64,000 nt of DNA from Bacillota bacterium (GTDB lineage: Bacteria > Bacillota > Clostridia > Christensenellales > DTU072). A program made the translations under genes and the position numbers. The notes under the pieces are model-generated. The model did no database searches. It saw only the letters and a list, made by a program, of their open reading frames with translations, and had not been told where the DNA came from. Positions 18,634 to 59,424 of this stretch are shown here, one piece after another. Each line of letters begins with the position of its first letter. Within the stretch, counting starts at the first letter, position 1. The stretch is from NCBI GenBank assembly GCA_009781445.1, contig WQYD01000001.1:73126-137125 (forward strand). The letters are read 5' to 3'.

Positions 18634-18682
18634 TATATAGTCGCGCGTGTGCGGAAGTTAAAAACGCGCGTGCAAGGTGAGT

Positions 18683-41178: not shown

Positions 41179-41670
41179 ATGATATTAAAAATTAAAAGAG
41201 ATTTACACAGTTTAAAAGAAGAGGCTTTTCCTGTGCAGAATGCAGAGGGGGATATTGTTGCCGTTCTTGTGCCTGTTACGCAAGGGTATTATATAACCAA
41301 CCGCGTGGGGGAACAAATAGCGCAAATAACCTTTTACGATAAAAACGCAAAACTTTGCATAGCTAACACCACAGGGAAGGACATAACTACCACAAGCATT
41401 GCAAGCCTTGGAAATAATAGATTCGGATTTAAGGATTCAGTTTCCGAACAGGATAAATCCTTTGCCTTAGATATCCCCAAAAGGTTTTTAGACGAACTTT
41501 CTTTTTGGGGTGATCCCTTAGTACCGTCTTATGACATTTATTCGGATAAAACCGTTTCCGCTTCCGTAACGGCAAGCGAAGGCGACACAATATCAATAAA
41601 AATCGCCCGCGATGCTAACTTTTTAAGAATGTTAATGATTGTGTTGGCAGTTGATTATTTTAGGGCATAG
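41179..41670 (+). CDS. Small protein, possibly tubby C-terminal-like (LURP-one/YxjI-type)
   Basis: 163 aa with an alternating beta-strand pattern and a hydrophobic C-terminal helix (FLRMLMIVLAVDYF). The assignment is weak. The stop codon TAG lies inside a GGGCATA array. Confidence 0.35.
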   Translation: MILKIKRDLHSLKEEAFPVQNAEGDIVAVLVPVTQGYYITNRVGEQIAQITFYDKNAKLCIANTTGKDITTTSIASLGNNRFGFKDSVSEQDKSFALDIPKRFLDELSFWGDPLVPSYDIYSDKTVSASVTASEGDTISIKIARDANFLRMLMIVLAVDYFRA

Positions 41671-41862
41671 GGCATAGGCCATAGGGCATAGGTAAAAATA
41701 AAAACACCTCTCTGTGTCTGAGGGGTGTTTTTGTTAGAAGAGAGTTAAAAATTAAGAATAAAAGGTGAAAAGTTATGGAATCTAAAATCTTACTCAAGAA
41801 AAATGCATAACAAAATAATTCCACCCCTATGCCCTATGCCCTATGCCCTATGCCCTATGGCC
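41662..41862 (+). repeat. Palindromic heptamer-array element, copy E (degenerate core, embedded terminator-like hairpin)
   Basis: Left arm (GGGCATA)x4 at 41662-41692, hairpin at about 41704-41729 plus T-run, degenerate core TATGGAATCTAAAATCT (41774-41790), AATTCCACCC plus (CTATGCC)x5 to 41862. Confidence 0.85.
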
Positions 41863-42417
41863 TCAATTAAGCGTGCGCATAAGCAAATCAATATCTTTAT
41901 TCGCAATATAATCAATCAGCGCGTCCGCAAGTTTTGTTAGCACGGGCGCGTAGTTTTCCATGTCGTCTTTTGGTATCGGGCTTAGCACGAAATCTTTTTT
42001 GGGTGAGGCGGAATCGCCCATTCCTATGCGTATTCGTTTAATACTTTCCGTGCCAAGGACGGAAACCACGCTTTTCATGCCGTTGTGCGTGCCACCGCTT
42101 CCAAATGCCCTTGCACGCAGTGTAAAGCGGGGAATCTCAAAATCGTCATAAAGTACGAAAATATCGTCTGGGGTTGCGCCGTACTTGGCGCATAGGCTTT
42201 TAACCGCATTTCCCGATAAATTCATAAAGGTTGTGGGCTTTGCAATCACAATTTTTTCACCGTTTCGCTGAAGCACAGTAACAAGTGATTGGCAATCGTA
42301 CTTCTTAATCTCTTTATTTAGCTTTTTTGCAAGCAAATCCACGGCAAGAAAGCCAAGGTTATGAAAGGTGTTTTCGTATAATTTTCCGGGGTTACCAAGC
42401 CCCACTATTAGTACCAT
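41863..42417 (-). CDS. pth: Peptidyl-tRNA hydrolase
   Basis: LIVGLGNPG..Y..T.HN.GF and GTHNGMKS motifs. Confidence 0.95.
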   Translation of the reverse strand: MVLIVGLGNPGKLYENTFHNLGFLAVDLLAKKLNKEIKKYDCQSLVTVLQRNGEKIVIAKPTTFMNLSGNAVKSLCAKYGATPDDIFVLYDDFEIPRFTLRARAFGSGGTHNGMKSVVSVLGTESIKRIRIGMGDSASPKKDFVLSPIPKDDMENYAPVLTKLADALIDYIANKDIDLLMRTLN

Positions 42418-42911: not shown

Positions 42912-42926
42912 AGCTATTTACAATTA

Positions 42927-42974
42927 TCGTTTCACTTTTATCGTTTCATGTTTATCGTTTCATGTTTCTCGTTT
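42927..42974 (-). repeat. Degenerate GAAACGA-type heptamer array (copy F) overlapping the 3' end of the peptidase gene
   Basis: TCGTTTCACTTTTATCGTTTCATGTTTATCGTTTCATGTTTCTCGTTT. It encodes the last ~10 residues (NEKHETINMKR) and the stop of the CDS. Confidence 0.7.
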
Positions 42975-43825: not shown

Positions 43826-43968
43826 CAGCGCACAGCGCACAGCGCACAATGGTGGATTCTAAATATCATTATTAGTTATTTAATCCATAATTCGTACTTT
43901 GTACTTTGTACTTCGTACTTAATAAATAATTCCTTCATTGTGCGCTGTGCGTTGTGCGCTGTGCGCTG
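43826..43968 (+). repeat. Palindromic heptamer-array element, copy G
   Basis: (CAGCGCA)x3 at 43826-43848, core 43851-43892, (CGTACTT)-type array, AATAATTCCTTCAT, then (TGTGCGC)x4 to 43968. Near-identical to copy B. Confidence 0.9.
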
Positions 43969-45222: not shown

Positions 45223-45251
45223 TTGACAAATTTTACAAGGGAACGTATGAT
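45223..45251 (+). promoter_or_regulatory. Candidate sigma-70-type promoter for the 45383-59199 operon
   Basis: TTGACA (45223-45228), 17-nt spacer, TATGAT (45246-45251). A leader of about 125 nt with GC-rich palindromic segments follows. Confidence 0.55.
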
Positions 45252-45382
45252 TTATAGTATCTTTACTAATACATATTGGCGCGATATCATTTAGCCTCAC
45301 ATATGCGCGCGTCATTATGTTTTTGGGCGGGATACCACATAAGTTCGCAGTGCGCCATGCACGGCGGGGGGAGATTTATATT

Positions 45383-48300
45383 ATGAAGAAAAGCGTTTCA
45401 TTTTCAAAAGTAGCAAAGGTTTTGGTTTTTGCACTTCTTGCTTTAATGATACTTGGTTTATGTTTGGCACAAGCCTTCAGCCCAGCAGGCGCAATGACGG
45501 CAAACGCCTCAACACCCGATGCCGTGTTCCGCTTGCAAGCAGACAGCACATTTACCCTTGGTTCAGGGGATTTTGTTCTTGAAGTTTGGATTGATAACAC
45601 CAGCCCCATAGGGTTCAGCATATTTCAGCTTGCCTTAAACTTTGACACTACAGTACTTACTCATGTAAGTACGGTAATGAACACCACTCTCTGCTGGTGT
45701 ACCAACCCAGATACCTGCGAGGAACTTGAGCATTCCGATCTCTATAAGCCCGCTATAGCCGGAGCTAATCAGGGGGAAGGGGATAACCCCGAAGACGGAT
45801 ATCTCTTGTTCGGTATGACTGGCCTAGGTTCTTCCAGCAGGATGGATATTCTCGCAGGCGGCGGCTCGGTTATGATTGCCACCATAACATTCACGGTTAA
45901 TCCAAGTGTAACCCACGGTTCGCAGGTTACAATTTGGGCAGGGACAACAGAACACATACCCGACAATAACTTTATAGAGCGTGCGCCCACAACGAGGTAT
46001 GAGCCAATGAGCCACACACACTTCAGTAACAAAGAAGGTCACGAAGTTGCCCCGCTTACCGTAACTTTTGAAGACGGTTCACCTGCGCTTGATAATCTTG
46101 CAGGCAGTGTAAGCATTTCGGGTACTACCGCATTCGGTGCAACCTTAACAGCAATAACAACCGCACTTGTATCCGATCCCGCAGGCACAACGCCCGAAGG
46201 CTTTACTTATCAATGGAATAGAGGCGCAAACCCCATTACGGGCGCAACGCAATCCACATATGTTCCCACACTTCAAGATATAGGTCAACAATTAACCGTT
46301 TCTGTTCAGGCGTCTAACCTCACGGGAACAGTTACTTCCGCCCCAACCACCGTTGTTACAAAGGCTGAACCTATTATTAGTTGGCCCACAAATCTAACTG
46401 CGAACTTCGGGCAAATGCTTTCAAATGTTTCCTTACCCGGTAACGGCACAAGTTCTATTTTAGGAAGCTTTTCGTGGGTACTAACCCCCGGCACCACAAG
46501 CGTGGGCAATGCAGGTTCACCCACATTTGAATTGAGGTTTACGCCCGATGCAACATTTTTGGCAACTTACGAAACAATCACAGAATTTGTAACCGTTACC
46601 GTTAACAAAATCAACGGCACAGGCACACCCACAGCAAACCTTGCAGGTTGGACACTTCCTGCCACAGGCGGTTCGCCTTCAGTTTCGGTTCAACGCTCAC
46701 CCGAACAAACTTCTGCAACCGCAATTTTTGAATATCAACTTAACGGCGCAGGTGCTTGGGTAAGCGTGCAACCTTCAACCGCAGGCACTCACAGCGTTAG
46801 GGCAAGGTGGGAAGAATCCACAAATTATCTTGCACACGAAACCGCAGTTGCCTCTTTCACAATTTTAGCACAGCCCGCTATCAGCGGTGTTCCCACAATT
46901 TCGGGAACGCATACTTTCCTTCAGACTTTAACAGCAAACACAACTGCGCTTGTATCAAGCCCCGCAGGCACACCACTCGGCACGCTTTCATATCAATGGC
47001 TTCGTGGCGGTGTTGAAATAGACGGCGCAATATCTTCCACATATGTTATTAATAACGCGCAGGACGCGGGCGCGATAATTAATGTAAGGGTAACCGCGTC
47101 AAACCTTACAGGCAGTGTTACTTCTGCAAACGCAACCGCGGTTGCAAAAGCTACCCCTACGCCCGCATGGCCTTCAGGCTTAACGGCAACTTTCGGGCAA
47201 ACTCTTGCTAATGTAAATTTACCTACAGTTGCAGGCGGAACTTTTAGCTGGACAAGTGGCACAGGTACTTCTGTGGGCGCGGTAGGCGCGCAAAGCCACA
47301 ATGTAACCTTTACCCCTGAGAACACAACCACACATGAAATTGTTTCTCAAAATGTTACCGTGACGGTTTCCGCTATAAGCATAGCAAACGCGGTTCTTGA
47401 TATTGATGCCCCCGTTGGCGGTGAAACCCCGTCCACGGTTGTTACTGCAACGCCTATTACGCCCGTGGGCTTTACTATCGGCACTGTTGTATGGACGCCT
47501 ACGCACGGCACTTTTATCGGCGGTACTGCTTACACGGTAACCATAACGCTTACGGCAGAACCTAATTACATTTTCCCCGCAGGCTTCTCAGCCACAATTT
47601 CGGGTTCTTCAGCCACAGTTAGCGGCGCACCTGGCGCAAGCGTAACCGTATCTCGCACATTTGCACCCACAGGCGCGCCCGAACTTAGCGGAACAGTTAC
47701 CATAAGCGGTAACGAAGTTTTCGGTCAAACTTTAACCGCAAACACAAGCGCACTCGTTTCTGATCCCGAAGGCACGGCACTCGGCACACTTACATATCAA
47801 TGGCTAAGAAACGGCTCGCTTATCGGCGGCGCAAACAATGCAACATATGTTCTCGGTGCTTTAGATGTGGGGCAAGCCATATCCGTAAGAGTTTATTCGG
47901 CTAATTGTGACGGCGAGGTTACTTCAGCCCCCACAGGCGCAATTGATAAGGCTGCGGGCGCGGTTGTGATTCTTCCTGCCGTTACCATACGCACTGCAAC
48001 ACGAATAGCATTCGCTTCTCTGCCAATTGCCCCCACAGGGCAAACCGTTGAAGTTGGGTATAACTTAACAAACACACCCCCTGCGTCAAATAGTTCAGTT
48101 TGGCAAGCAAACCGTGACTTTCAAACAGGGTTAGATCCAAACACAACTTATTACTTCTTTATCCGTTCGGCTGAAAGCGCAACCCACCATGAGTATGTAT
48201 CAAGCGGGGTAGCAGAAGCCACGGCAAAAGCAACGCTTACAGGCGTACCCACAATAACAGGAACGCCTACTTTTGGTAACACTTTAACCGCAGGCGCAGG

Positions 48301-51300
48301 CACGCTTGCCTCTACCCCCGTTATTCCCGAATTAGGCGCGCTTTCATATGAATGGCTAAGAGGCGACACCGTTATTGCAGGCGCAAACAGCGCAACATAC
48401 ACCCTTGTTGCCGAAGATGTGGGGCAACAAATAAGAGTTAGAATTTCTACCGCAAATTGTGACGGTTCAGTGGCTTCTTTACCCACCACGGCGGTAGCAA
48501 GAACCACAGGCGCAACGCTTACCGCCCCTTCTATAGATTCACACACCGCAAGCACAGTTACATTGATTGCGCACGCAAGCCTTGCCACAGGGCAGGATTT
48601 AATGTATGCCGTTAGCACTTCGTCCACGGCACCCGCCGCAAACGCAACAGGGCTGAACGCATGGCAATCCTCGCTTTCGTTCACAGGCTTAAACGCAAAC
48701 ACAAATTATTACTTCTTTGTTAGCGCGCTTCAATCTGATACTCACGCGCGTTCCGTATCAACAGGTACACTTCAAAGAACAGGCAGGGCAACGCTTGCAG
48801 GCGAAGTTGTGATAACAGGCAACACATACTTTGGGCAAATCCTTACCGCTAATGTGGACGGGCTTGAATCAGATCCGATCGGCGCAACATTTGGCGCATT
48901 TACATATGTTTGGAAGCGTGGCGAAACCACAGTAGGTGGCAATAGCCCCAACTACACACTTGTGCAGGCGGATATCGGGCAAACGCTAACCGTTACGGTA
49001 ACTTCTGCAAATTGTGACGGCTTTGTGGTGTCCTCACCCACCGCTGAGATTGCAAAAGCACCGCAAAATGCGCCTAACGCCCCTCAGCTACTTATGTCCT
49101 CAGACACCTCTATTACCCTTGTGGCTATAAGCGGTGCAGAGTACAGCATTGATAACGGTGCAAATTGGCAATCGTCTGCAATTTTCGCAGGTTTAACCGC
49201 AGGTGAAACTTATACCTTTGTGGCGCGTTTGGCAGAAACCGATACGCACCTTGCAAGCCCTAACAGTAGTTCAAGTGCAGATATTGTTGCACAGGTTCAT
49301 AAAACCGAATCTTCAGGCAAAGGCGAATTTAGAATTGTTCCAACTAAGCCCGTTCACAAGCTTGGCTCTGGCAACCTTGTAATTGAAATTTGGATTGAAA
49401 ACAATTCAAGCCCATTTGTGCCTGTAACCCAATATCAAATCCCTCTTATTTTTGACGCTACCGTTCTAACCCATGTAAGCACCGTAATGGTAGACCACGG
49501 CGGTAGCGGCGACTATATGCCAAGTATTTTAGGCAACGACCCTGCGAACGGTATGCTTGTTTTCGGAAGGACAGCAGGCGGTTCAGAAGCTACAGGAATA
49601 TCTGCCCCCTCATTCCTCATTGCCACTATCACTTTCACCGTGAATTCAGGTGTAAATGACGGCGATTTAACCGTGATTTTCTCGGATTCGTATGTGGCTT
49701 TTGCCAACGCGTTTGTTGGACATAATTTCACGGGGTATTTCCACCACCATTCAAATTTAGGCGACACAATCGCACCTGCCTCAATATCTTTCGTAGATGT
49801 GCTTTGCCCTGATTGTAATGACGAAGATTGCTGTGATTGCGATAGCGGAAACTGCGAAGAATGCGTATGCAGAGATTGCGACACCTGCCAAACACATGAT
49901 TCCTGCGCTTGCGTGGCTTGCGTGTGCGGTGCTTGCGCAACCTGCAATGACGCTTGCGCTCACGCTTGCAAATTATGTGCAGACGAGGATTGTTGCGTAT
50001 GCGATACCGTTAACTGCGCAATATGCCCCTGTGACGATTGCACCGTTTGCCAAACACATGATTCCTGCCTATGCGTGGCTTGCGTATGCGGTGCGTGTGC
50101 AATCTGCAATGACGCTTGCGCCCATATCTGCAAATTCTGTGCAGACGAGGATTGCTGTGATTGCGATAGCGGAAACTGCGTAATCTGCGTATGTGACGAT
50201 TGCACCGTTTGCCAAACACATGATTCATGCCTATGCGTAGCTTGCGTGTGCGGTGCGTGCGCAACTTGTAATGACGCTTGCGGACACACCTGCAAATTAT
50301 GTGCAGACGCGCTTTGTTGCGTATGCGATACTATAAACTGCAAAGAATGCGTATGTGATGATTGTACCGTTTGCCAAACACATGATTCATGCGCTTGCGT
50401 GGCTTGCGTGTGCGGTGCTTGTGCAACCTGCAACGATGCTTGCACTCATACCTGCAAATTCTGTGCAGACGCGCTTTGTTGCGTATGCGATGATGAAAAT
50501 TGCGATTTCTGCGCTTGCGGTGATTGCTTAACGCACGATCCTTGCGATTGTGATTGCAACGAATGCGGTGACGAAAAGTGCTGTGAATGTGATAGCGGAA
50601 ATTGTGATCTTTGCGAAAATGATATTTGTTGCCTAACGCATGACGGATTCTGCGCTTGCGAGGGTTGCCCGAATTGCAGTAACCCTGAATTGTGCGAAGT
50701 TTGTGACGAATGCGGAAATACCGAATGCGAATGCGTTTGTTGCGCCGAATGCGGAAAAGAAGTTTGCATTTGCTGTGCGTGCCGTGTAGATTTTGACGGA
50801 AGAGATTGCAAATTTACGGAAACCGCCTGCAAAGAACGCACCTGCTTCGGCTGTGAATGCAACGAAATCCTAATTGCAAAAGACACAGGAAACATATTTG
50901 AATTTATATATTTCCATGAAGGGGACATTACTGGCGAGTTTGAAAACATTTGCTACTGTTGTGACGAGTTGTATTTCGGAGCAGATTTGTACGAGATAAT
51001 TGATAGGAGCAAATATGTTTATGATCAAAACAGAGAGGTGTTCCTTATCAATGTTGCAGGCTATGAGGAAATAATTTTCATACTAAAACAGTTCACAAAC
51101 TATTTAGAGAACCCAGATCGTATCAGACTGCTAGATAGGCAAAAAAATGTGATTGATGCTTCCGAATACGACAGCAGATTTATTGGCACAGGCATGACGA
51201 TTCAGCTTCTTGATAGAGATGACGACACAATCGTTATAGACGAAGTAATCGTTGTTATCAAGGGCGATGTAAACGGCGATGGAGTTTTGAATATTTCCGA

Positions 51301-51694
51301 TGGTGCGGCGATAGTTTCACACATGAGTGTTGCAAATATTTTATCGGGGGCTTTTAGAATTTCAGCCGATGTTAATAGCGATGGCGTAATAAATATCGCC
51401 GATAGAGCGGCCGTCATATCGCACATGAGCCTCGCAAGAGATTTGTTCGCAGGTATGAGAGTCGCCGATGACGAAACAAGCGAACCCGAACCCGATGAAC
51501 CCGATGAGCCGTTGCCTGTTGCACCTATAACAGATGCTGAAAACTTGGCAGTAGGCACCTATGAAGAAGCAAGCGCAAGCGGAAAGGCTAATGCAATCAA
51601 TTCAAAAATGCTTGCAAATATCCTTATGCTAACAAGTTTAATGGGCTTGTGCGTTTATCAAAGCAAACACAGAAAAAGAGAACAAAACAAATAA
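45383..51694 (+). CDS. Giant (~2,103 aa) surface protein: signal peptide, two cohesin-like modules, Ig/FN3-like repeats, Cys-rich tandem-repeat region, dockerin, C-terminal TM anchor
   Basis: Signal peptide MKKSVSFSKVAKVLVFALLALMILGLCLAQA. Cohesin-like segments at about 45521-46075 and 49321-49800 (GSGDFVLEVWIDN...FQLALNFDTTVLTHVS...IATITFTVN). A ~95-aa repeat reads ISGxxxFGxTLTA...TYQWLRxG..IxGA...TY. FN3-like NTxYYFFVRA repeats. Dockerin GDVNGDGVLNISD...ADVNSDGVINIAD (51263-51430). TM plus KHRKREQNK at the C-terminus. ATG 45383 follows GGGGGGAG. Confidence 0.75.
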   Translation: MKKSVSFSKVAKVLVFALLALMILGLCLAQAFSPAGAMTANASTPDAVFRLQADSTFTLGSGDFVLEVWIDNTSPIGFSIFQLALNFDTTVLTHVSTVMNTTLCWCTNPDTCEELEHSDLYKPAIAGANQGEGDNPEDGYLLFGMTGLGSSSRMDILAGGGSVMIATITFTVNPSVTHGSQVTIWAGTTEHIPDNNFIERAPTTRYEPMSHTHFSNKEGHEVAPLTVTFEDGSPALDNLAGSVSISGTTAFGATLTAITTALVSDPAGTTPEGFTYQWNRGANPITGATQSTYVPTLQDIGQQLTVSVQASNLTGTVTSAPTTVVTKAEPIISWPTNLTANFGQMLSNVSLPGNGTSSILGSFSWVLTPGTTSVGNAGSPTFELRFTPDATFLATYETITEFVTVTVNKINGTGTPTANLAGWTLPATGGSPSVSVQRSPEQTSATAIFEYQLNGAGAWVSVQPSTAGTHSVRARWEESTNYLAHETAVASFTILAQPAISGVPTISGTHTFLQTLTANTTALVSSPAGTPLGTLSYQWLRGGVEIDGAISSTYVINNAQDAGAIINVRVTASNLTGSVTSANATAVAKATPTPAWPSGLTATFGQTLANVNLPTVAGGTFSWTSGTGTSVGAVGAQSHNVTFTPENTTTHEIVSQNVTVTVSAISIANAVLDIDAPVGGETPSTVVTATPITPVGFTIGTVVWTPTHGTFIGGTAYTVTITLTAEPNYIFPAGFSATISGSSATVSGAPGASVTVSRTFAPTGAPELSGTVTISGNEVFGQTLTANTSALVSDPEGTALGTLTYQWLRNGSLIGGANNATYVLGALDVGQAISVRVYSANCDGEVTSAPTGAIDKAAGAVVILPAVTIRTATRIAFASLPIAPTGQTVEVGYNLTNTPPASNSSVWQANRDFQTGLDPNTTYYFFIRSAESATHHEYVSSGVAEATAKATLTGVPTITGTPTFGNTLTAGAGTLASTPVIPELGALSYEWLRGDTVIAGANSATYTLVAEDVGQQIRVRISTANCDGSVASLPTTAVARTTGATLTAPSIDSHTASTVTLIAHASLATGQDLMYAVSTSSTAPAANATGLNAWQSSLSFTGLNANTNYYFFVSALQSDTHARSVSTGTLQRTGRATLAGEVVITGNTYFGQILTANVDGLESDPIGATFGAFTYVWKRGETTVGGNSPNYTLVQADIGQTLTVTVTSANCDGFVVSSPTAEIAKAPQNAPNAPQLLMSSDTSITLVAISGAEYSIDNGANWQSSAIFAGLTAGETYTFVARLAETDTHLASPNSSSSADIVAQVHKTESSGKGEFRIVPTKPVHKLGSGNLVIEIWIENNSSPFVPVTQYQIPLIFDATVLTHVSTVMVDHGGSGDYMPSILGNDPANGMLVFGRTAGGSEATGISAPSFLIATITFTVNSGVNDGDLTVIFSDSYVAFANAFVGHNFTGYFHHHSNLGDTIAPASISFVDVLCPDCNDEDCCDCDSGNCEECVCRDCDTCQTHDSCACVACVCGACATCNDACAHACKLCADEDCCVCDTVNCAICPCDDCTVCQTHDSCLCVACVCGACAICNDACAHICKFCADEDCCDCDSGNCVICVCDDCTVCQTHDSCLCVACVCGACATCNDACGHTCKLCADALCCVCDTINCKECVCDDCTVCQTHDSCACVACVCGACATCNDACTHTCKFCADALCCVCDDENCDFCACGDCLTHDPCDCDCNECGDEKCCECDSGNCDLCENDICCLTHDGFCACEGCPNCSNPELCEVCDECGNTECECVCCAECGKEVCICCACRVDFDGRDCKFTETACKERTCFGCECNEILIAKDTGNIFEFIYFHEGDITGEFENICYCCDELYFGADLYEIIDRSKYVYDQNREVFLINVAGYEEIIFILKQFTNYLENPDRIRLLDRQKNVIDASEYDSRFIGTGMTIQLLDRDDDTIVIDEVIVVIKGDVNGDGVLNISDGAAIVSHMSVANILSGAFRISADVNSDGVINIADRAAVISHMSLARDLFAGMRVADDETSEPEPDEPDEPLPVAPITDAENLAVGTYEEASASGKANAINSKMLANILMLTSLMGLCVYQSKHRKREQNK
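49805..50530 (+). repeat. Tandem 162-bp (54-aa) coding repeats, 4 full units plus a diverging 5th, encoding the Cys-rich module
   Basis: Units start at 49805, 49967, 50129, 50291 and 50453, each opening with TGC and the last four with TGCAAATT[AC]TGTGCAGAC. All are in frame. Consensus: CKxCADEDCCxCDxxNCxxCxCDDCTVCQTHDSCxCVACVCGACAxCNDACxHx. Confidence 0.9.
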
Positions 51695-51750
51695 ATCACT
51701 AAGAGAACAAACCAAACAAAAATTCAAGATTATTCTTTGGAGGAATATTT

Positions 51751-54700
51751 ATGAAAAACGGAGTATCATTTACAAAAAGTAGCGCAAGAATGCTTTTGAT
51801 TGCGTTATTCGCGTTCGCGCTTATCGGGCTTTGTGTCGCAATGGCACTTGCGCCTATCTCGCTTGCGCCGACAACGCAAAACGGCACGCAACTTGAGTAC
51901 GCGGAAGCATCTTCGGGTGGCGGTATGATTAGGTATGTCACGCCTAGCACTCACGCGTTAGGTTCAGGCAATGTAAGCATAGATGTATTTCTTGACAACA
52001 CCTCTGGGATTAATATCCAAGACGCAGAAGTTTTTATGCAGTTCAACACAAGCCACTTTACTTATGTTAGGACAGACATGCACGATCCAACGGGTTTCTG
52101 CGAAACATATCCTATTGGCGTAGGACAAAACCTTTCTGTTGGTAGAGTTCATTTTTATTCCACAGGATCAAATAACCAAGCGCGCCAGATTTCTGGAACA
52201 AACATTAAATATGCCACGGTTGTTTTGGCTGTTCGTTCAGAAGTGACAAATGGAACTGTAACCACCATTCAATCGCCTGCCCTTCCAAACAAGTCCGTTT
52301 TGCTTAGAACATCAACTGGCGGGGGTGACTATGAACACTTTAACACCGAATTAGCTTCAGACAATATCGCTTCAGTAAATATTACTTTTGAAGCTGCGCC
52401 TGAGGCGATTAACACGGTTGCGATTACTGGTGTTGTTGCGCCTGCGATTCTTGCAACCCCAAGTACAACTGCGACAAGCGGACACCCAACGCAATACAGC
52501 ATTGGCACTGTTTCTTGGAACGGAAACCCTGCAATGTTCTTAGGTAGCACGCAATACACAGTGTCGGTGGTGGTTAATGCGCTTCCGGGCTATGTTTTCC
52601 CTGCTTCAAACACAGGAATTACAAGGACAGTTAACGGAAATTCCGCAAATATTACTGGCACAGGAACAGCGTCAAAGACGATAACTTATCAATTCTCTGC
52701 CACTGCGGCACCCACGGTTACGGGCATTGCGGTTCAAACGCAACCCGCGCTTACATACACGCACGGGCAAAACCTTAACTTAAGTGCGCTTGTGGCAAGG
52801 CTTTCACACAATGACGGAACTAATAAAGATGTTTCGTTTGCAAACTTTGCTTCTAACAGCCCCGCAATAACCACAAGCATTGCAAACAGCACAGCACTTT
52901 CACGCACCGCGCATAACGGGCAGACTATAACCGTTTCCACATTAACATTTAACGCAACCACAAACGCACTAACAGTTAACAGGGCTACGGGCGCAACTCT
53001 TACCGCCCCCTCTGTTGCAAGCCAAACAGCTGACAGCGTAACGCTTAACGCACACGGCGCGATAAGCACAACGCAAACGCTAAATTACGGCTGGTCAACG
53101 ACAAATACCGTGGGAAGCGTGGCAAATTGGCAAGCAGGGCTTACATTTGGCAGTTTGTCCACAGGCACAACATATTACTTCTTTGTGCGTGCGCTTGAGA
53201 ATGACACTCACGCTTTAAGCAACTCAGGAAGCACACCGGTTAACCTAAGCAAATCCGCAGGCGCAAGCCTAACCGCGCCCACAGTGGCAAGCTTTACCGC
53301 AAATCAAGTGGTGCTTACCGCACACAGCCCAGTAGCCACACTTCAAACGCTTAATTACGGACGCAACACAACTAATTCTACCGCAAGCGCAACATGGCAA
53401 GAAGGTACAACATTTACAGGCTTAACACCGAACACTGATTACTACTTCTTTGTGAGGGCTAATGATTCTGCCACGCACAATGTAAGCCATTCAGCAGGAA
53501 CATTACAAAAAACCGCTATGGCAACGCTTGGCGGACAACCCACAATCACAGGCGGAAGCACTGCAACATTTGGCACAGCACTTACAGCAGTTACAACGGG
53601 CCTAACCGCAACCCCCTCAATACCTGCACTCGGCGCGGTAACTTACCAATGGCTAAGAAACGGCACAACGAACATTGGCACAAACAGCGCAAGCTATACG
53701 CCTGTTGCCGCGGATGTGGGTCAAACAATATCAGTAAGAGTTACCACTGCTAACACCACAGGCACTGCTACTTCTATCGCAACGGCTACCGTGTTAAGGG
53801 CAACCCAAACAATTTCTATCAGCAGTTCAAATGCTTACACCTATAACCCAAGCACACCTTACGCTATCACAAGCACAAGCGGTGCAGGCACAGGCGCGAT
53901 TACATATACAGTAGTGGCAGGCGGTACAGGCGCAGGCACGATAGCAGGTTCTACCCTCACGGTAACCAAAGCAGGCACAATATTCATTATGGCAAGCAAA
54001 GCGCAATGCGCCACGCACCTTACTGCAACTTTGGCTTCTAACTTTATATTAACCGTGTCTAAAGCAACGGTTGCACCCGGTGCGCCCACTAACGGCGGTT
54101 CAACGGCAACCACAGTAACACTTACCCCCCCTGCGAACCCCTTAAGCCGTACGCTTAATTACGGTTGGTCTACCACAAATAGCGCAGAAAGCGTAACAAA
54201 TTGGCAAGCAAGCCCCGAATTTAGCGGATTAAGTGCAGGAACAGTGTACTTCTTCTCACGCTTCATGGAAAACGATCTCTATAATCAGGCAAACAGCACA
54301 ACTTCGCTTCAAGTTGACTTCGGCAAAGAAGCGGGCGCAACATTAACCAAGCCTGCAATCAGCAGTGTTTCCAAAACTGAAATTACGCTTACCGCACACG
54401 GTGCAATAACCACAGGGCAAGATCTTCGTTATGGCGTAAGCACCACAAACAGTGCTTCAAGCGCAACATGGCAAGCAGGCACAACATTCTCAGAATTAAC
54501 GGCAAACACAGAGTATTTCTTCTTTGTGAGGGCTTTGGGTTCTGATTCGCACAGCGAAAGCACTTCTGCAAGCACTGCACAAAAAACGCAAGTTGCACTT
54601 GTGATTAACAGCGCAACCGCATGGGAAATGGGTACTGATTACACAATTACCACAACAGGCGGAAACGGCAACAGCACAGTTACATTTGCAATAGTGGGCG

Positions 54701-55233
54701 GAACAGGTGAAGGCACAATCGCGGGCAATAAACTTACAATAACCGCGATAGGCACAATAATCCTAAAAGCAACGCAAGGCGCAGAAGGCATTTATGTTGC
54801 CACTGAATCCGAAGACTTCATTCTTAACGCAACAGAACGCCAACTAAATGTTTCATTTAACAACGGTGGCCCAAACAAGGACGGCAAGGTTATCGCAACC
54901 GATAAAGTAGCCCCCGGTGCAACGGCACAAACGCGCGTGGTTACAAGAAGAGGTTACACATTCGTATCTTGGGAACTAAACGAAAAGGCATATGACTTTA
55001 ATTCAGCAGTAGAACAAGATATAACCCTAACAGCCACATGGTCAAGAAATTGGGGAACATTCACAGTTGCAGAAACCGATTTCGCACTTTGGGATTGGCT
55101 TGGCTTCGTGATCGGCGGATTTGTGGCAGGTATGATGGCAAGGCTTGCATACTATTTCTACAACAGCCGTAAGAGAATTAAAGCAAGAAACGACAAAGTT
55201 GAAGAAATGGCGAGGGAACAAAGCAATGATTGA
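51751..55233 (+). CDS. Paralogous 1,160-aa surface protein: signal peptide, cohesin-like module, FN3/Ig-like repeats, one InlB-B-type repeat, C-terminal TM anchor
   Basis: The N-terminus MKNGVSFTKSSARMLLIALFAFALIGLCVAMA parallels the upstream gene. Cohesin-like GSGNVSIDVFLDNTSGINIQDAEVFMQFNTSHFTYV. Repeated TxYYFFVRA modules. RGYTFVSWELN. TM GFVIGGFVAGMMARLAYYFY plus a basic tail. Confidence 0.7.
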   Translation: MKNGVSFTKSSARMLLIALFAFALIGLCVAMALAPISLAPTTQNGTQLEYAEASSGGGMIRYVTPSTHALGSGNVSIDVFLDNTSGINIQDAEVFMQFNTSHFTYVRTDMHDPTGFCETYPIGVGQNLSVGRVHFYSTGSNNQARQISGTNIKYATVVLAVRSEVTNGTVTTIQSPALPNKSVLLRTSTGGGDYEHFNTELASDNIASVNITFEAAPEAINTVAITGVVAPAILATPSTTATSGHPTQYSIGTVSWNGNPAMFLGSTQYTVSVVVNALPGYVFPASNTGITRTVNGNSANITGTGTASKTITYQFSATAAPTVTGIAVQTQPALTYTHGQNLNLSALVARLSHNDGTNKDVSFANFASNSPAITTSIANSTALSRTAHNGQTITVSTLTFNATTNALTVNRATGATLTAPSVASQTADSVTLNAHGAISTTQTLNYGWSTTNTVGSVANWQAGLTFGSLSTGTTYYFFVRALENDTHALSNSGSTPVNLSKSAGASLTAPTVASFTANQVVLTAHSPVATLQTLNYGRNTTNSTASATWQEGTTFTGLTPNTDYYFFVRANDSATHNVSHSAGTLQKTAMATLGGQPTITGGSTATFGTALTAVTTGLTATPSIPALGAVTYQWLRNGTTNIGTNSASYTPVAADVGQTISVRVTTANTTGTATSIATATVLRATQTISISSSNAYTYNPSTPYAITSTSGAGTGAITYTVVAGGTGAGTIAGSTLTVTKAGTIFIMASKAQCATHLTATLASNFILTVSKATVAPGAPTNGGSTATTVTLTPPANPLSRTLNYGWSTTNSAESVTNWQASPEFSGLSAGTVYFFSRFMENDLYNQANSTTSLQVDFGKEAGATLTKPAISSVSKTEITLTAHGAITTGQDLRYGVSTTNSASSATWQAGTTFSELTANTEYFFFVRALGSDSHSESTSASTAQKTQVALVINSATAWEMGTDYTITTTGGNGNSTVTFAIVGGTGEGTIAGNKLTITAIGTIILKATQGAEGIYVATESEDFILNATERQLNVSFNNGGPNKDGKVIATDKVAPGATAQTRVVTRRGYTFVSWELNEKAYDFNSAVEQDITLTATWSRNWGTFTVAETDFALWDWLGFVIGGFVAGMMARLAYYFYNSRKRIKARNDKVEEMAREQSND

Positions 55234-55408
55234 CACTAACACGGTAATACTGCTTGCGCTTGGTGCGTTTCTGCTTGGATTTATAATCAGAGTTATGATT
55301 CCAAAGCGAAAGAAGCAAGCCAAGGCAACCCTCAGCACAAACACAAACACAAAATCACTTAACGAACAAAATAAAAATATAAGCGAAAACGGAGGTTCCG
55401 CATTATGA
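55226..55408 (+). CDS. Small single-pass membrane protein (60 aa)
   Basis: ATG 55226 follows GAGGGA and overlaps the end of the upstream gene. TM VILLALGAFLLGFIIRVMI plus KRKKQAK. Its stop overlaps the next start (ATGA at 55405-55408). Confidence 0.45.
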   Translation: MIDTNTVILLALGAFLLGFIIRVMIPKRKKQAKATLSTNTNTKSLNEQNKNISENGGSAL

Positions 55409-58400
55409 GAATTTTAATTTCACTCGCAATAATAATTGCTTGCTTCTTGCTCGGTGTGCTTGTTATGCACATCATACTATGGTTACTTGAAAGGGCAAAG
55501 GAAAGAAGATTGCTTCAATCACTTCTTCCGAAGGATTTCCAAGTTACCTTTGTGCTTAATGACGGCTCTGGGGTATCAATACCCGTAACCGTGAAAGCAG
55601 ATGCTTATGCGGATAAATATGCACCCACAGCCACAAAGGCAGGAAGCAAATTTGCGCACTGGTATTTAGACGGAACACCCGAAACGGTTGCCTATAATAT
55701 GAAAACGAAAACCAAGAAGGATTTAACGCTTCAAGCGTACTTCACGGTTAACCGCCACATTGTTTCGGTGCAAGACGGTTCGTTCTTCATAGACGGGCTT
55801 GCCACGCTGGACGGTAAGGCACAAATGGGGCAACGCATTGATTTGGTTTCGGCTGGCGCACCTGAGGGCTATGTGTTCTCAAAATTCGCAAGTGATGACG
55901 CCGTTATCCTTGCCACGCAATCAGGCGGTGCATTCTTTATGATGCCCGATAAGCCCGTTCGCGTGAGAACTGCGTTCACGGCTATTCCCAAGGCGGAAGA
56001 ACCCAAGGTGGAAGTACCTGCACCCGTTATTGTGCAAGCACCTGCACCCGTGGTTGTTGAAGAACCCAAAGTTGTGGTTCTTAAAGGATTCTTGCTTCGT
56101 GAAGATGTGTTTGAACATGTGGAAAATATGGGGCTTAATATCAGCAGATTCCCTATCCGTCCCGATGCGAAGAACAACGGCCGTTACACAGGTATGCCCG
56201 ATTATCTATTGGTTAACAATGAGGTATTCTCGCACATTAACGCTTACGAAGAAATCGTGTTTAACATTGCACTAAGGTTAAGCCCTGAATCTGCGCGCTT
56301 GCATTCAATTTACCACAATCTTCACCATATGGCTTACCCTCTCGGCGGTGATTGGTATAACCTTGCGGTAGATAAAACATTTAACCAAAAGAAAGAAGTG
56401 TTTGTGATTATAGACGATTCTTACGATTATGTTATCAGCCTCAAGAAGAGTAAAGAACTTGCTGATTTAGAGGCAAACAGGGCAATGAGGGCGCAAGCGG
56501 AATGTGATTTAAGGCAAGCCGTTAGCGTGGCAGTTGATAAGGAAAGAAGGGAATACGATAAACTTGAAATTGAAAGATTGCAAGGCGCACTTGCCGAAGC
56601 AAGCATTCCCGCAAGAAGAACTTCTTGTTCGGCGTCCAATCCTAACCCAAGCGTGTTCTTAATGCAACAACCTATGCAAGTAAGGGAAACCTATGCAAAT
56701 ATGGGTTGCCCCATGATTAGCAACGGCTGTGCAAGGGCTTCGCAATTCCGTTGCCTCGCCACAACCGCATTTTGCCAACCTGCAACCGTTTGCAACACAA
56801 GCAACGATTGCCCTATGTATAGGGACGCGTGCAAATTGCGCAAACAGCTTGAAATGCAAACCTCAGCGCAAAATGACGCAAAGGACGCAAAGTATGAATT
56901 GCGCAAGGAAGTGGAAGTTCTTCGCAACCAAGTGCAAAAATACAATGAAACCTTTGAGGCAAACGAAGCGTTAACAAAAGAAGTTGCAAGGCTTCACGAT
57001 CAAATTGCTTACCAAATTGCGAAAGAAGAAGATGCAAAGCAAGCAATTGAAGAACTTAAGCAAGAAATAGCCAATCTTGAGGCATTAGGCGAACAAAACG
57101 GTGCGCTTAATGAGGAAATTGCAACTCTTAAAGAAGAACTTGCCACACAGGAAGAGGCTTTTGCCACAAACGCAGAAGAACTAAAGAAAGAAATTGAAGC
57201 GTTGCAACGCGAAATTGAGAACTTGCTTCAAGCATTGGCAGAAGAAGGAATCCGTCCGCTAACAATGGACGAACTTCGTGAAGAAATTGAAAGGCTTAGG
57301 GCATTAATTAACGCGCAAGCCGAAGTTCAAAAGCAAGCAGGCGAAATTATTACAAACCTTCGTGCCGAAATGAATAAACTTAAAGCCTGCCCACTCGTTT
57401 CTGAGGACGGCAAGGTGAATGAAGAAGTTCAAAACGAAATCGCAGGGCTTCGTGAACAAATCGCACAGCAAACGGCAACTCAAGAATCCGCACGCAAACT
57501 TAACGAAGAACTTTCAAAGCAAATTGAAAGACTACTTAAGCAACTTGGCTTAAGTGAGGACGCGGAAAACGATGCTTTACGCGCTGAAATTGAAGCACTT
57601 AAAGCACAGCTTGGCGAACAAGGCGAAGAAGCCCGCGAAAATGCTGAAATCGCAGAACTTCTTAATGAAATTGAAAACCTTTACGAACAAGTTTGTGATA
57701 AGGAAGAAGAACAAGCTATAGCGGTTCTCACAGAGGATGCAGTTAAGCAGGCACAAGCCGAACTTCAAGAAAAAATTGATGCACTTCAAAACGAAGTAGA
57801 CGCGCTTAAAGCTAAGGCAGAAGGCGAAGTGGCACTTCTTGAAAATTCAAAAATTGAAGAACTTATTGCAGAAAACGAAAATCTTAAGAACCAACTCGTT
57901 TCCCAAGCGGATCAAGCTAACGAGGCTTTGCGCCTTGAAGTGCTAAGCGCGGCGCAAGAAGAAGCTAACATTGCTATAGACGCTTTGAAAGCGGAAATCG
58001 CAACACTTCAAGAAGAACTTGATAGGCTTCGCGCGCAACTTGGCGAATACGAAACTGGCAACGAAGTAAGCGAAGTTCTTCGTGGCGAAATAGACGGTTT
58101 GCGCACAGTGATTGAAACTCTTAACACTCAGCTTGATATTGTTAATGCTGATAAAGATCAAGCGTTAAAGGAAATTGAAGCACTGAAAGAACAAATTCAA
58201 GATGCCAAGGATACCGCAGATAGCGAAAACGAAGAATTGCGCCAAGAAATTGAACAGCTTCAAGAACAAATTGAGGACGGGGCAATCCAAAAGGTTATGA
58301 CGCTTTCACGCCAAGATATTCTTGATCATTGTTCAGAAATGTGCAACGATCCTCGTTTCCCTGTTGCACCGAGAAACCTTGAGCAAACAGACGAACTTCC

Positions 58401-59199
58401 CGATTTCTTACTATGCGGTGAAAGATCATTCGCCCTTATGTTTGAACATAATGACTTAGTGTTCAGGTTCATTCTTCGTATGGACGCAGACACAGCAAGG
58501 AATTACAGCGAAAAACATGTTATTGAACGCGCACCCGCACCCTCAAGCGGTGAATGGTTTAGCGTACTTGTAGACGGTTCGTTTGCAAGCAAGCAAGAAG
58601 TTTACGCGCTTCTTGAAGCAAGCTACTTCTTTACATACTATAAGTTCGTTCGCCAAAGCGATGACGGCGGAACAGCGAAAGACGAGCAAGAATTCATTGA
58701 ATTTGAAATCAAGCGCGCCGCACCGGATATTGATGCTTGTTCAGCAATAGCAGAACAAGAATATCAATCCGCACTTGAACGCTACAAGGCAAGAACATAT
58801 TCTAACTTTATCTTAAAGCGCAAAGATATCACAGCATATATGCGCGGATTGGGTAATCCTGAAATAAGCGCGGTGGATCGCCCCAAGCAACCGCAATTAC
58901 CTGCCTCAATCAAGCTAAACGGTAAAACATTTGCAATGCTTTATGCTATTGATGACGGCGTTCTTATGATAGTTCGCTTATCCCCAGCAGATGCCAAGGC
59001 GCTTGCGGAAAACCACCCCGAAATTTGCCGTGCAAGTTTCCCCAAGGGTTCACACTGGTACCACTTACCGATAGACGGTGCGTTCAAGAGCAGAGAAGCT
59101 GTGTACAGCGTTCTTGATTCCGCCCGCGAATTCGTGAATCAAAAAGAACAAGGCAAAACCGCAGCGCAAAAGGCAATGACGATTAAACGCCCCGAATAA
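55405..59199 (+). CDS. Membrane-anchored 1,264-aa protein: N-terminal TM, InlB-B-like repeat region, three YjbR/MmcQ-like domains and a ~500-aa coiled coil
   Basis: TM ISLAIIIACFLLGVLVMHIILWLL is followed by ERAKERR. KFAHWYLDG is an InlB-B-type repeat. A Glu/Ala/Leu/Lys/Gln heptad-rich region spans about 56870-58290. Three segments share the pattern PD(Y/F)LL..(F)..(F/Y)......LRLSP(E/A)(D)A......H......P.G..WY.L..DG.F....EV....D.SY. Confidence 0.65.
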   Translation: MRILISLAIIIACFLLGVLVMHIILWLLERAKERRLLQSLLPKDFQVTFVLNDGSGVSIPVTVKADAYADKYAPTATKAGSKFAHWYLDGTPETVAYNMKTKTKKDLTLQAYFTVNRHIVSVQDGSFFIDGLATLDGKAQMGQRIDLVSAGAPEGYVFSKFASDDAVILATQSGGAFFMMPDKPVRVRTAFTAIPKAEEPKVEVPAPVIVQAPAPVVVEEPKVVVLKGFLLREDVFEHVENMGLNISRFPIRPDAKNNGRYTGMPDYLLVNNEVFSHINAYEEIVFNIALRLSPESARLHSIYHNLHHMAYPLGGDWYNLAVDKTFNQKKEVFVIIDDSYDYVISLKKSKELADLEANRAMRAQAECDLRQAVSVAVDKERREYDKLEIERLQGALAEASIPARRTSCSASNPNPSVFLMQQPMQVRETYANMGCPMISNGCARASQFRCLATTAFCQPATVCNTSNDCPMYRDACKLRKQLEMQTSAQNDAKDAKYELRKEVEVLRNQVQKYNETFEANEALTKEVARLHDQIAYQIAKEEDAKQAIEELKQEIANLEALGEQNGALNEEIATLKEELATQEEAFATNAEELKKEIEALQREIENLLQALAEEGIRPLTMDELREEIERLRALINAQAEVQKQAGEIITNLRAEMNKLKACPLVSEDGKVNEEVQNEIAGLREQIAQQTATQESARKLNEELSKQIERLLKQLGLSEDAENDALRAEIEALKAQLGEQGEEARENAEIAELLNEIENLYEQVCDKEEEQAIAVLTEDAVKQAQAELQEKIDALQNEVDALKAKAEGEVALLENSKIEELIAENENLKNQLVSQADQANEALRLEVLSAAQEEANIAIDALKAEIATLQEELDRLRAQLGEYETGNEVSEVLRGEIDGLRTVIETLNTQLDIVNADKDQALKEIEALKEQIQDAKDTADSENEELRQEIEQLQEQIEDGAIQKVMTLSRQDILDHCSEMCNDPRFPVAPRNLEQTDELPDFLLCGERSFALMFEHNDLVFRFILRMDADTARNYSEKHVIERAPAPSSGEWFSVLVDGSFASKQEVYALLEASYFFTYYKFVRQSDDGGTAKDEQEFIEFEIKRAAPDIDACSAIAEQEYQSALERYKARTYSNFILKRKDITAYMRGLGNPEISAVDRPKQPQLPASIKLNGKTFAMLYAIDDGVLMIVRLSPADAKALAENHPEICRASFPKGSHWYHLPIDGAFKSREAVYSVLDSAREFVNQKEQGKTAAQKAMTIKRPE

Positions 59200-59207
59200 G
59201 TTAAATT

Positions 59208-59238
59208 AAAAAAGCCACCTGAAAGGGTGGCTTTTTTA
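59208..59238 (+). terminator. Rho-independent terminator of the surface-protein operon
   Basis: A-run, AGCCACC (59212-59218) pairing with GGTGGCT (59226-59232), then TTTTTT. Confidence 0.8.
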
Positions 59239-59239
59239 A

Positions 59240-59424
59240 AGGGCATAGGGCATAGGGGTGGAATCTAAATCTCATTATTAATAGTGAAACGAGAAACATG
59301 AAACGAGAAACATGGTGGAATCTAAATCTCATTATTAATTAATCCACAATTCTGCATTCTGAATTCTTAATTCTGAATTAAAAAATTCCACCCCTATGCC
59401 CTAAACCCTATGCCCTATGCCCTC
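59240..59424 (+). repeat. Palindromic heptamer-array element, copy H (composite with two cores)
   Basis: (GGGCATA)x2, truncated core 59257-59283, GAAACGA-type array, full core 59314-59351, AATTCTG-type array, AAAAAATTCCACCC, then (CTATGCC)-type inverted arm to 59424. Confidence 0.9.

Follow-up and report, generated by a model that had tools for sequence, protein, structure and literature searches.

A stretch of 64,000 nucleotides (nt) from a Bacillota bacterium (positions 73,126 to 137,125 of contig WQYD01000001.1, assembly GCA_009781445.1; hereafter the window, numbered from its first letter) encodes a giant surface protein in which an array of cysteine-rich tandem repeats lies between a cohesin-like module and a C-terminal end that carries a dockerin. 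Judged by its sequence, the array is a new repeat family, metallothionein-like in composition and not a member of the metallothioneins. Over a spacer knotted by disulfides we tentatively favor, as a reading that falls a little short of probable, a wall-proximal stalk that would be stabilized by metal-thiolate bonds, or a metal sink.

The array occupies 353 codons of the plus strand (49805-50863) without a stop, and 109 of them encode Cys (30.9%); the other residues include 47 Asp, 33 Ala, 23 Val, 22 Glu, 22 Thr, and 10 His. Outside the array the same protein has 11 Cys in 1750 amino acids (aa; 0.6%), and a six-frame scan of the window found no other comparable Cys-rich stretch within a real open reading frame (ORF). 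Tandem Repeats Finder reports a period of 162 nt in 4.0 copies (49838-50491, score 840) and a super-period of 324 nt in 2.0 copies (score 948). An earlier note on this DNA, made from the letters alone, had described a region of ~353 aa with about 30% Cys and 162-bp tandem repeats, and these values bear it out. Its four units also stand in number, length, and Cys content (49805-49966, 49967-50128, 50129-50290, and 50291-50452, each with 54 aa, 17 Cys, and 2 His), although they are not near-identical as it had claimed, pairwise identity being 73-85% in DNA and 72-83% in protein. The units pair as 1/3 and 2/4 (A-B-A-B), which explains the 324-nt super-period. Beyond them, where a diverging fifth unit and ~110 aa of degenerate sequence had been proposed, a hidden Markov model built from the four canonical units (the unit HMM) scores 54, 64, 50, and 14 bits and instead delimits a half unit, a unit of 37 aa, and one or two degenerate units (Table 1). 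Candidate ligands, Cys or His, follow one another at distances of 1-5 residues throughout the unit, and the array's ligand spacings comprise 48 CxxC, 27 CxC, and 9 CC. All 6 units counted have an odd number of Cys, and the total of 109 is odd too. With almost no aromatic residues (7 Phe, Trp, or Tyr among 353), the array has no hydrophobic core, and it is strongly acidic (69 Asp and Glu vs 13 Lys and Arg, isoelectric point (pI) 4.05).

The assembly across the array is sound. A 2125-aa product is on record from two assemblies, on contigs of 137 kb and 77 kb, and the 77-kb ENA contig is 100% identical to the window over the 10.4 kb aligned. A Logan contig from a different sequencing run (SRR10512954) is 100% identical over window positions 50392-59269 and starts within unit 4, which is what a unitig terminating in a repeat would do. 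No exact repeat within the array is longer than 35 nt, so ordinary short reads can resolve it. Within the array, the four units agree in all 17 Cys columns, 6 of which vary between TGC and TGT; pairwise differences between units number 44/61/98 at codon positions 1/2/3; synonymous variation occurs in 13 of the 36 amino-acid-invariant columns; and the variable columns (18 of 18) are all spacer positions between Cys or His. The invariant Cys columns, the TGC/TGT variation, and the excess of third-position changes together argue that the Cys frame is under purifying selection. The array is old, its units having diverged under such selection, and the earlier proposal of recent expansion or concerted evolution, drawn from high nucleotide identity, is not supported, since the units differ at 15-27% of their bases, mostly at third positions. 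Other open frames overlie the array on the minus strand (49960-50445 and 50446-50949) and in another plus frame; those on the opposite strand are a by-product of codon composition.

The array matches no described family. A search of the 353-aa region with hmmscan against Pfam-A gave no family at E <= 10, NCBIfam gave no match at E <= 1, and the PDB sequences gave nothing meaningful at E <= 10 (best, a CadC-type repressor at E 0.25), in agreement with the earlier view that no known domain is present. Nor did the literature search turn up a Cys-rich array in cohesin-dockerin proteins or in bacterial surface proteins of any kind. Among 1.84 billion cluster representative proteins, an index-free HMMER search returned two, one of them a true relative, which answers the earlier call for a BLASTP or HMMER search for a homologous Cys repeat with a single homologue: MCL2630193.1 (entry P0123; hypothetical protein FWD49_01555, partial), a protein of 6953 aa from a Firmicutes bacterium metagenome-assembled genome. 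Of its last 2247 aa, 672 are Cys (29.9%) and 98 are His, and in this protein the unit HMM recognizes about 35-45 units, which vary in length from 50 to 90 aa, as against 7-8 in the window protein. Array against array, BLASTP gives E 9e-47 at ~36% identity, with many overlapping alignments; the two share the identical 12-mer CCDCDSGNCVIC; and Smith-Waterman scores exceed those of composition-preserving shuffles at z 13.5-16.7, or z 9.2 when the Cys positions are held fixed. The E value, the 12-mer, and the shuffles together indicate that the similarity is homology and not shared composition. Because the N-terminal 4700 aa of MCL2630193.1 are unrelated to the window protein, the Cys module is a mobile repeat that two different giant proteins carry. 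MCL2630193.1 has no cohesin or dockerin on record and is cut at its C-terminus by the contig end, and its N-terminal part, used as a query, found 3 proteins, none of them Cys-rich. P0124 was rejected as a relative: it is an unrelated Cys/Asn/Gly repeat protein with a different motif and a marginal E of 3.5e-4.

The two proteins together define what is conserved in the unit. Among 32 well-aligned units from both, Cys is present in 88-100% at columns 1, 4, 9, 10, 12, 17, 20, 22, 25, 28, 34, 36, 39, 41, 44, and 51. At column 47, 77% of units have Cys and 19% have His; at column 31, 88% have His and 6% have Cys; and column 53 is His in every unit that has the column. Preferred residues at non-ligand positions are Asp6 (66%), Gly/Asp8 (85%), Asp/Glu13 (90%), and Asn16 (52%), so that the skeleton common to both proteins is CxxCxDxGCCxC[DE]xxNCxxCxCxxCxxCxxH[DE]xCxCxxCxCxxCxxCxxxCxH. 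Cys counts per unit in MCL2630193.1 are odd in 17 cases vs even in 9. An AlphaFold 2 (AF2) model of two units, computed from 17 alignment rows, has a predicted local distance difference test score (pLDDT) of 39.8, too low for the model to be of use.

The setting of the array (Table 1) supports the earlier description of a giant surface protein with a Sec signal, a cohesin-like module upstream of the array, a dockerin downstream, and a hydrophobic segment with a basic tail at the C-terminus. The product has 2103 aa when read from the ATG at 45383 and 2125 aa from an upstream in-frame ATG at 45317, and public annotations differ on the start, one giving 45383 (2103 aa) and another 45317 (2125 aa), where the mechanical ORF call also begins. 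The ATG at 45383 is probably the real start: a strong ribosome-binding site, GGGGGGAG, lies 9 nt 5' of it, the signal peptide then falls at the extreme N-terminus, and the database entry P0001 begins at its Met. A promoter-like TTGACA-17-TATGAT lies upstream of the gene at 45223-45251. The signal peptide has the protein's highest hydrophobicity (Kyte-Doolittle hydropathy 2.74), is preceded by Lys residues and followed by AQA, and lacks a twin arginine. Module 2, next to the array, matches the Pfam Cohesin family at E 0.007 and 17 bits, below the cut-off of 24.1; its AF2 model (pLDDT 57.9, predicted template modeling score (pTM) 0.59) has almost exclusively cohesins as top Foldseek matches in the PDB (E 5.6e-3, template modeling score 0.5-0.59), and a profile search of PDB sequences with the module found no cohesin. 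Module 1 has a 15-aa insert at 45700-45745, NTTLCWCTNPDTCEE, which contains 3 Cys and which module 2 lacks. On the other side of the array, the dockerin matches PF00404 at E 8.6e-9 and 35.9 bits (cut-off 22.9) and carries duplicated Ca-binding loops of the DxNxDG type, DVNGDGVLNISD and DVNSDGVINIAD, features by which we regard it as bona fide. The module between array and dockerin has no covering family in Pfam or NCBIfam, where the rows returned are far below cut-offs and located in the dockerin, and no BLASTP match among the proteins retrieved. The C-terminal hydrophobic segment, MLANILMLTSLMGLCVY (51608-51658, 17 aa), is followed by the basic tail QSKHRKREQNK; the two form a probable membrane anchor, ~280 residues from the array, and no LPXTG-type motif is visible at the C-terminus.

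Table 1. Features of the surface-protein gene and its Cys array, in window positions.
Feature	Position	Strand	Basis or remark
Gene, giant surface protein	45383..51694	+	one long ORF
Sec-type signal peptide, MKKSVSFSKVAKVLVFALLALMILGLCLAQA/F	45383..45475	+	hydrophobicity; putative cleavage site
Cohesin-like module 1	45500..46102	+	39% identical to module 2
Stalk, Ig-like (AIR9/SCAB-Ig type) and FN3-like repeats, ~1060 aa	46103..49288	+	Pfam PF23197, PF16709
Cohesin-like module 2, abuts Cys array on upstream side	49289..49804	+	Pfam, AF2/Foldseek
Four canonical 54-aa Cys-rich units	49805..50452	+	repeat analysis, alignment, unit HMM
Degenerate part of Cys array	50453..50863	+	unit HMM, Cys/His counts
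Half unit, 34 aa, 11 Cys + 1 His	50453-50554	+	unit HMM
Short unit, 37 aa, 11 Cys + 1 His	50555-50665	+	unit HMM
One or two degenerate (weaker) units	50666-50863	+	unit HMM
~130-aa module between Cys array and dockerin, no family assigned	50864..51259	+	database searches
Type I dockerin	51260..51424	+	Pfam PF00404, aa 1982-2036 of 2125-aa reading
Acidic Pro-rich linker, hydrophobic segment, and basic tail	51425..51691	+	read from sequence

Several features of the array fit ligands for metal better than partners in disulfides. The exchange of Cys and His at columns 47 and 31 would leave a metal site intact and would break a disulfide, and the odd or non-even Cys counts point the same way. The CxxC, CxC, and CC spacing, which is that of metallothioneins, and the lack of a hydrophobic core are also what a metal-binding polymer might be expected to show. 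The low AF2 confidence for the apo sequence is as expected for a fold that depends on a cofactor, a weak point in the argument. The host, too, is of an anaerobic Firmicutes type, which accords better with metal than with disulfides; the earlier suggestion of an anaerobe is supported by the pyruvate formate-lyase, its activase, and the rubrerythrin encoded in the window. In the Firmicutes that Daniels et al. analyzed, which are aerobic species, exported proteins largely exclude Cys, and there is no sign of a disulfide-forming system (PMC2823432). The surface protein outside its array conforms to that exclusion rule. The earlier suggestion of a metal-ligand array remains plausible, and it is strengthened by the His/Cys interchange and by the lack of an even-number bias in the Cys counts.

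We infer metal binding, its stoichiometry, the rigidity of the array, and its location at the wall alike from features of the sequence. The protein would be exported unfolded by Sec; outside the membrane, thiolates and imidazoles in CxxC, CxC, CC, and CxxH arrangements would wrap thiophilic ions that an anoxic habitat offers (such as Zn, Fe, Ni, Cu, or Cd). The 19 Cys/His ligands of a unit could form roughly 4-5 tetrahedral sites, or hold 6-7 ions in clusters of metallothionein type, and the 12 ligands of a half unit (11 Cys and 1 His) would allow three tetrahedral sites. The result may be a compact, protease-resistant, metal-cross-linked rod, and its position between the last cohesin-like module and the end formed by the X-like module, dockerin, and anchor would make it a wall-proximal stalk. 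As a co-function or by-product, the array might take up thiophilic metals outside the cell in large amounts, as a sink with ~119 Cys/His ligands in the window protein and ~770 in MCL2630193.1. A number of points weigh against this proposal. The array matches no metal-binding family in Pfam, NCBIfam, or the PDB sequences, and the window has no gene for a metal transporter, chaperone, or regulator next to that of the surface protein. The acidity of the array is unlike that of metallothioneins, and a pI of 4.05, together with the charge of the thiolates, would make it highly negative as a polymer if no further cations were bound; the array of MCL2630193.1 is also 11% aromatic (Trp, Tyr, and Phe), again unlike metallothioneins. 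The Cys/His swap amounts to one alignment column in ~30 units of a single protein, disulfides between units would evade the parity argument, and the low AF2 confidence may simply reflect an alignment of 17 rows.

The strongest competitor to a metal-thiolate stalk, though in our view an unlikely one, is a disulfide-knotted rigid spacer, in which a dense ladder of disulfides, partly between units, would produce a stiff, protease-resistant, metal-free rod. The extracytoplasmic site, the linker-like position between modules, and the conserved Cys positions would all suit such a spacer, and the dense-Cys extracellular repeats of eukaryotes are usually disulfide-bonded. Its difficulties are the interchange of Cys with His at columns 47 and 31 and Cys counts that are odd or not biased to even numbers, per unit and in total. 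The host appears to be of a strict-anaerobe type in a reducing habitat, and the window contains no gene for a thiol-disulfide oxidoreductase; in the aerobic Firmicutes species analyzed, exported proteins avoid Cys and no sign of a disulfide-forming system is seen (PMC2823432). Membership in the EGF, furin-like, or myxococcal-type disulfide repeats was considered separately and rejected, given 17 Cys per unit and no family match.

A less likely explanation still is that the array is a sacrificial or redox-active shield of thiols, a surface buffer that would consume O2-derived oxidants, quinones, and other electrophiles ahead of the membrane, any bound metal being perhaps incidental. A place near the membrane anchor, in an organism sensitive to oxygen, would make sense for 109 thiols in this role, and an analogy can be drawn with the Cys-rich surface proteins of anaerobic protists: Giardia's variant-specific surface proteins (VSPs) bind Zn sub-stoichiometrically (PMC2996952), and a paper on oxygen-induced gene expression in Spironucleus mentions 'cysteine-rich' 16 times (PMC6397501). 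A simple buffer, however, would have no need of the strict 17-Cys/2-His spacing that is kept in two very different proteins, and no reductase partner is encoded nearby.

Two further possibilities invoke electron transfer. The first, which we think improbable, is a surface metal-thiolate or Fe-S 'wire' or redox capacitor, with centers chained from the membrane through the wall; if true, it could serve extracellular electron transfer, oxygen detoxification, or mineral attachment, and would be a protein-based form of such electron transfer that bears no relation to multihaem cytochromes or conductive pili. The second, more doubtful again, is an iron-sulfur array in which extracellular [4Fe-4S] or [2Fe-2S] clusters relay electrons along the stalk. 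Each canonical unit does contain CxxCxxCxxxC (Cys41-44-47-51), with the spacing of a ferredoxin motif, and an iron- and sulfide-rich anoxic habitat is plausible. The motif is not conserved in MCL2630193.1, however, where column 49 is frequently missing and His often takes the place of Cys47, and there is neither a Fer4 family match at E <= 10 nor an adjacent electron-transfer gene. A signal of the Sec type without a twin arginine is also difficult to square with loading of the cofactor in the cytoplasm.

The remaining explanations have little to recommend them. The array could be a substrate for enzymatic cross-linking, in which a maturase joins Cys to neighboring Asp, Thr, or Asn by thioethers or other cross-links, as in ranthipeptides or QhpC; a composition of Cys with Asp, Thr, and Asn does resemble that of acceptor-rich precursors. 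We hold this to be very improbable: the window's only radical S-adenosylmethionine gene is the pyruvate formate-lyase activase, which adjoins the gene for its enzyme, a Sec substrate of 2100 aa would need to be modified before export, and we know of no precedent. Least probable of all, and close to refuted, is an artefact, either a misassembled or collapsed repeat or a Cys frame that is the by-product of an opposite-strand gene or of non-coding repeat DNA. In its favor, the minus strand and a further plus frame also have open frames, poly-Cys 'ORFs' in public genomes are in many cases antisense or microsatellite artefacts, and the Logan unitig is broken within unit 4. Against it, the Cys frame runs on into recognized modules on both sides in one 2100-aa ORF, its variation is mostly at third positions, no exact repeat exceeds 35 nt, MCL2630193.1 keeps the same amino-acid skeleton, and the same product occurs in two assemblies, identical throughout the aligned part of the ENA contig.

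The rarity of the repeat has to be read together with the behavior of the search methods. A word-indexed search with the Cys region (aa 1497-1849) found nothing, not even the protein itself, which phmmer recovers with the same region at 702 bits, so the word-indexed negative for the array is void; the method also misses MCL2630193.1 when queried with that protein's own aa 3301-4720, and its negatives are unreliable for late internal regions of giant proteins. Queried with the whole surface protein, the databases return matches only through the Ig-like repeats, the distant ones all aligning to the Ig-like/FN3-like stalk, and the Cys content of the proteins matched does not exceed 10 per 100 aa. 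HMMER's bias correction lowered MCL2630193.1 to 39.6 bits. Also set aside was a group of proteins ~2250 aa long, at 10 Cys per 100 aa, whose zinc-ribbon-like CxxC...CxxC repeats are a different motif. A scan of genome contigs with a pattern of Cys codons only gave matches dominated, among those listed, by (TGC)n-type microsatellites and antisense frames, and refined pattern scans of viral and metagenome contigs yielded no secure family member. One candidate is a partial gene on a 1.25-kb metagenome contig (Ga0123354_10370255; L211:1-400, minus strand), where a signal or transmembrane segment is followed by CxxCxEDECCxCD motifs and the neighboring gene is signal-peptidase-like; it is kept only as a candidate, its match to the unit HMM not being significant under default bias correction. 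The Cys-repeat family is very rare in public data, and HMMER's bias correction probably hides short members.

The same scans drew attention to other Cys-rich proteins. A separate family of ~320-360 aa with ~50 Cys occurs on large phage-like contigs from IMG/VR (L122, L129, L171, and L184) and on metagenome contigs (L194, L203, L204, L214, L218, and L230); its motif, CKKCTRKCDACEERGCKECVEFACCDCDYNMCYECRNNEVDCGCYGECYSCG, has only the seed pattern in common with the window unit. Three IMG/VR contigs (L136, 3300009826_000158; L164 and L190, 3300002501_000059 and _000087) carry ORFs of 880-941 aa with a block like PPPPPCGCEDCDCCDCCDCEPCDCCDCCVCESCDCCDCEEEECC, which is another dense Cys/Asp/Glu array.

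The genes around the surface-protein gene give little guidance. No metal-handling, thiol-oxidoreductase, or peptide-maturase gene is adjacent to it within the window. Other large surface-protein ORFs lie at 18677-31078, 51751-55233, and 55405-59199, and the remaining genes (housekeeping, sugar metabolism, and ABC transporters) offer no clue to the function of the array. The first of these ORFs, on the plus strand, encodes 4133 aa from a GTG start with Flg_new_2 as its single recognizable Pfam domain, and the window is unusually rich in huge surface proteins. Short tandem arrays occur elsewhere in it. The heptamer TAGGGCA is repeated 4.6 times at 41661-41692 and, as its reverse complement, 5.6 times at 41825-41863, an inverted arrangement that flanks a terminator-like hairpin, AAAAACACCTCTCTGTGTCTGAGGGGTGTTTTT, between a gene ending at 41670 and a peptidyl-tRNA hydrolase gene. 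Further arrays lie at 42924-42974 (14-mer) and 43939-43968 (7-mer).

A conserved module with 31% Cys that is predicted to lie outside the membrane of an anaerobe, 353 aa long here and 2247 aa in the sole relative, runs counter to the rule that Firmicutes avoid Cys in exported proteins (PMC2823432). It implies a chemistry, whether metal-thiolate, redox, or cross-link, hitherto not ascribed to Gram-positive surface proteins. Should the array bind metal, it would be a natural counterpart of the metallothioneins that have been engineered for surface display and metal capture, and a load of tens to hundreds of ions per protein would matter for how available metals are, and how they are detoxified, in gut or sediment communities. 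Should it be redox-active, it would offer a new route for handling electrons outside the cell. In either case the repeat family is one that current domain databases do not cover and that standard searches easily miss.

Comparison with known systems places the array in partly familiar territory. Its closest counterpart, MCL2630193.1, shares the 17 Cys, His31, His53, Asp6, Gly/Asp8, Asp/Glu13, and Asn16, the Cys content of ~30%, and the placing of the array toward the C-terminus of a giant secreted repeat protein, but differs in the length of its array (2247 aa), in its about 35-45 units of variable length, and in its 11% of aromatics. Metallothioneins, both eukaryotic and bacterial (SmtA/BmtA), resemble the array in their ~30% Cys, their CxC, CxxC, and CC spacings, their few aromatics, and their lack of a hydrophobic core; the window array falls within the compositional definition of the group (15-35% Cys, CxC/CxxC/CC, few aromatics), and like metallothioneins it is probably disordered without metal, as the AF2 model suggests. 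Metallothioneins, however, are small (<10 kDa) and cytosolic, whereas the array is a tandem stretch of 353 aa in an exported protein of 2103 aa, is very acidic, and has two conserved His per unit. Membership was rejected for these reasons and for the lack of a family match. The ferredoxin motif CxxCxxCxxxCP has the spacing of Cys41-44-47-51 in the canonical units but includes a Pro that they lack; with no Fer4 match, and with neither the spacing nor Cys47 kept in MCL2630193.1, a ferredoxin-type 4Fe-4S domain was rejected as well.

Among extracellular proteins, the VSPs of Giardia have ~11-12% Cys and a conserved C-terminal transmembrane region that ends in CRGKA. Membership in that group was also rejected, as the array has no Pfam match and the translation contains neither GGCY nor CRGKA. 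The VSPs and related high-cysteine membrane proteins of anaerobic protists nevertheless form, on a gut anaerobe, a Cys-rich, CXXC-dense extracellular coat with reported zinc binding (PMC2996952), and differ in being eukaryotic and in their motifs, CxxCHxxCxxC and GGCY. The flanks of the array resemble cellulosome-type scaffoldins and cohesin-dockerin surface proteins of Clostridia and Ruminococcus, with cohesin-like modules and an X-like module followed by a type I dockerin and a surface anchor. The linkers between the modules of those proteins are Pro/Thr-rich, unlike the Cys array. The array is thus a familiar type of composition in an unprecedented context, and an extracellular module with 30% Cys is unexpected in a Firmicutes-type anaerobe.

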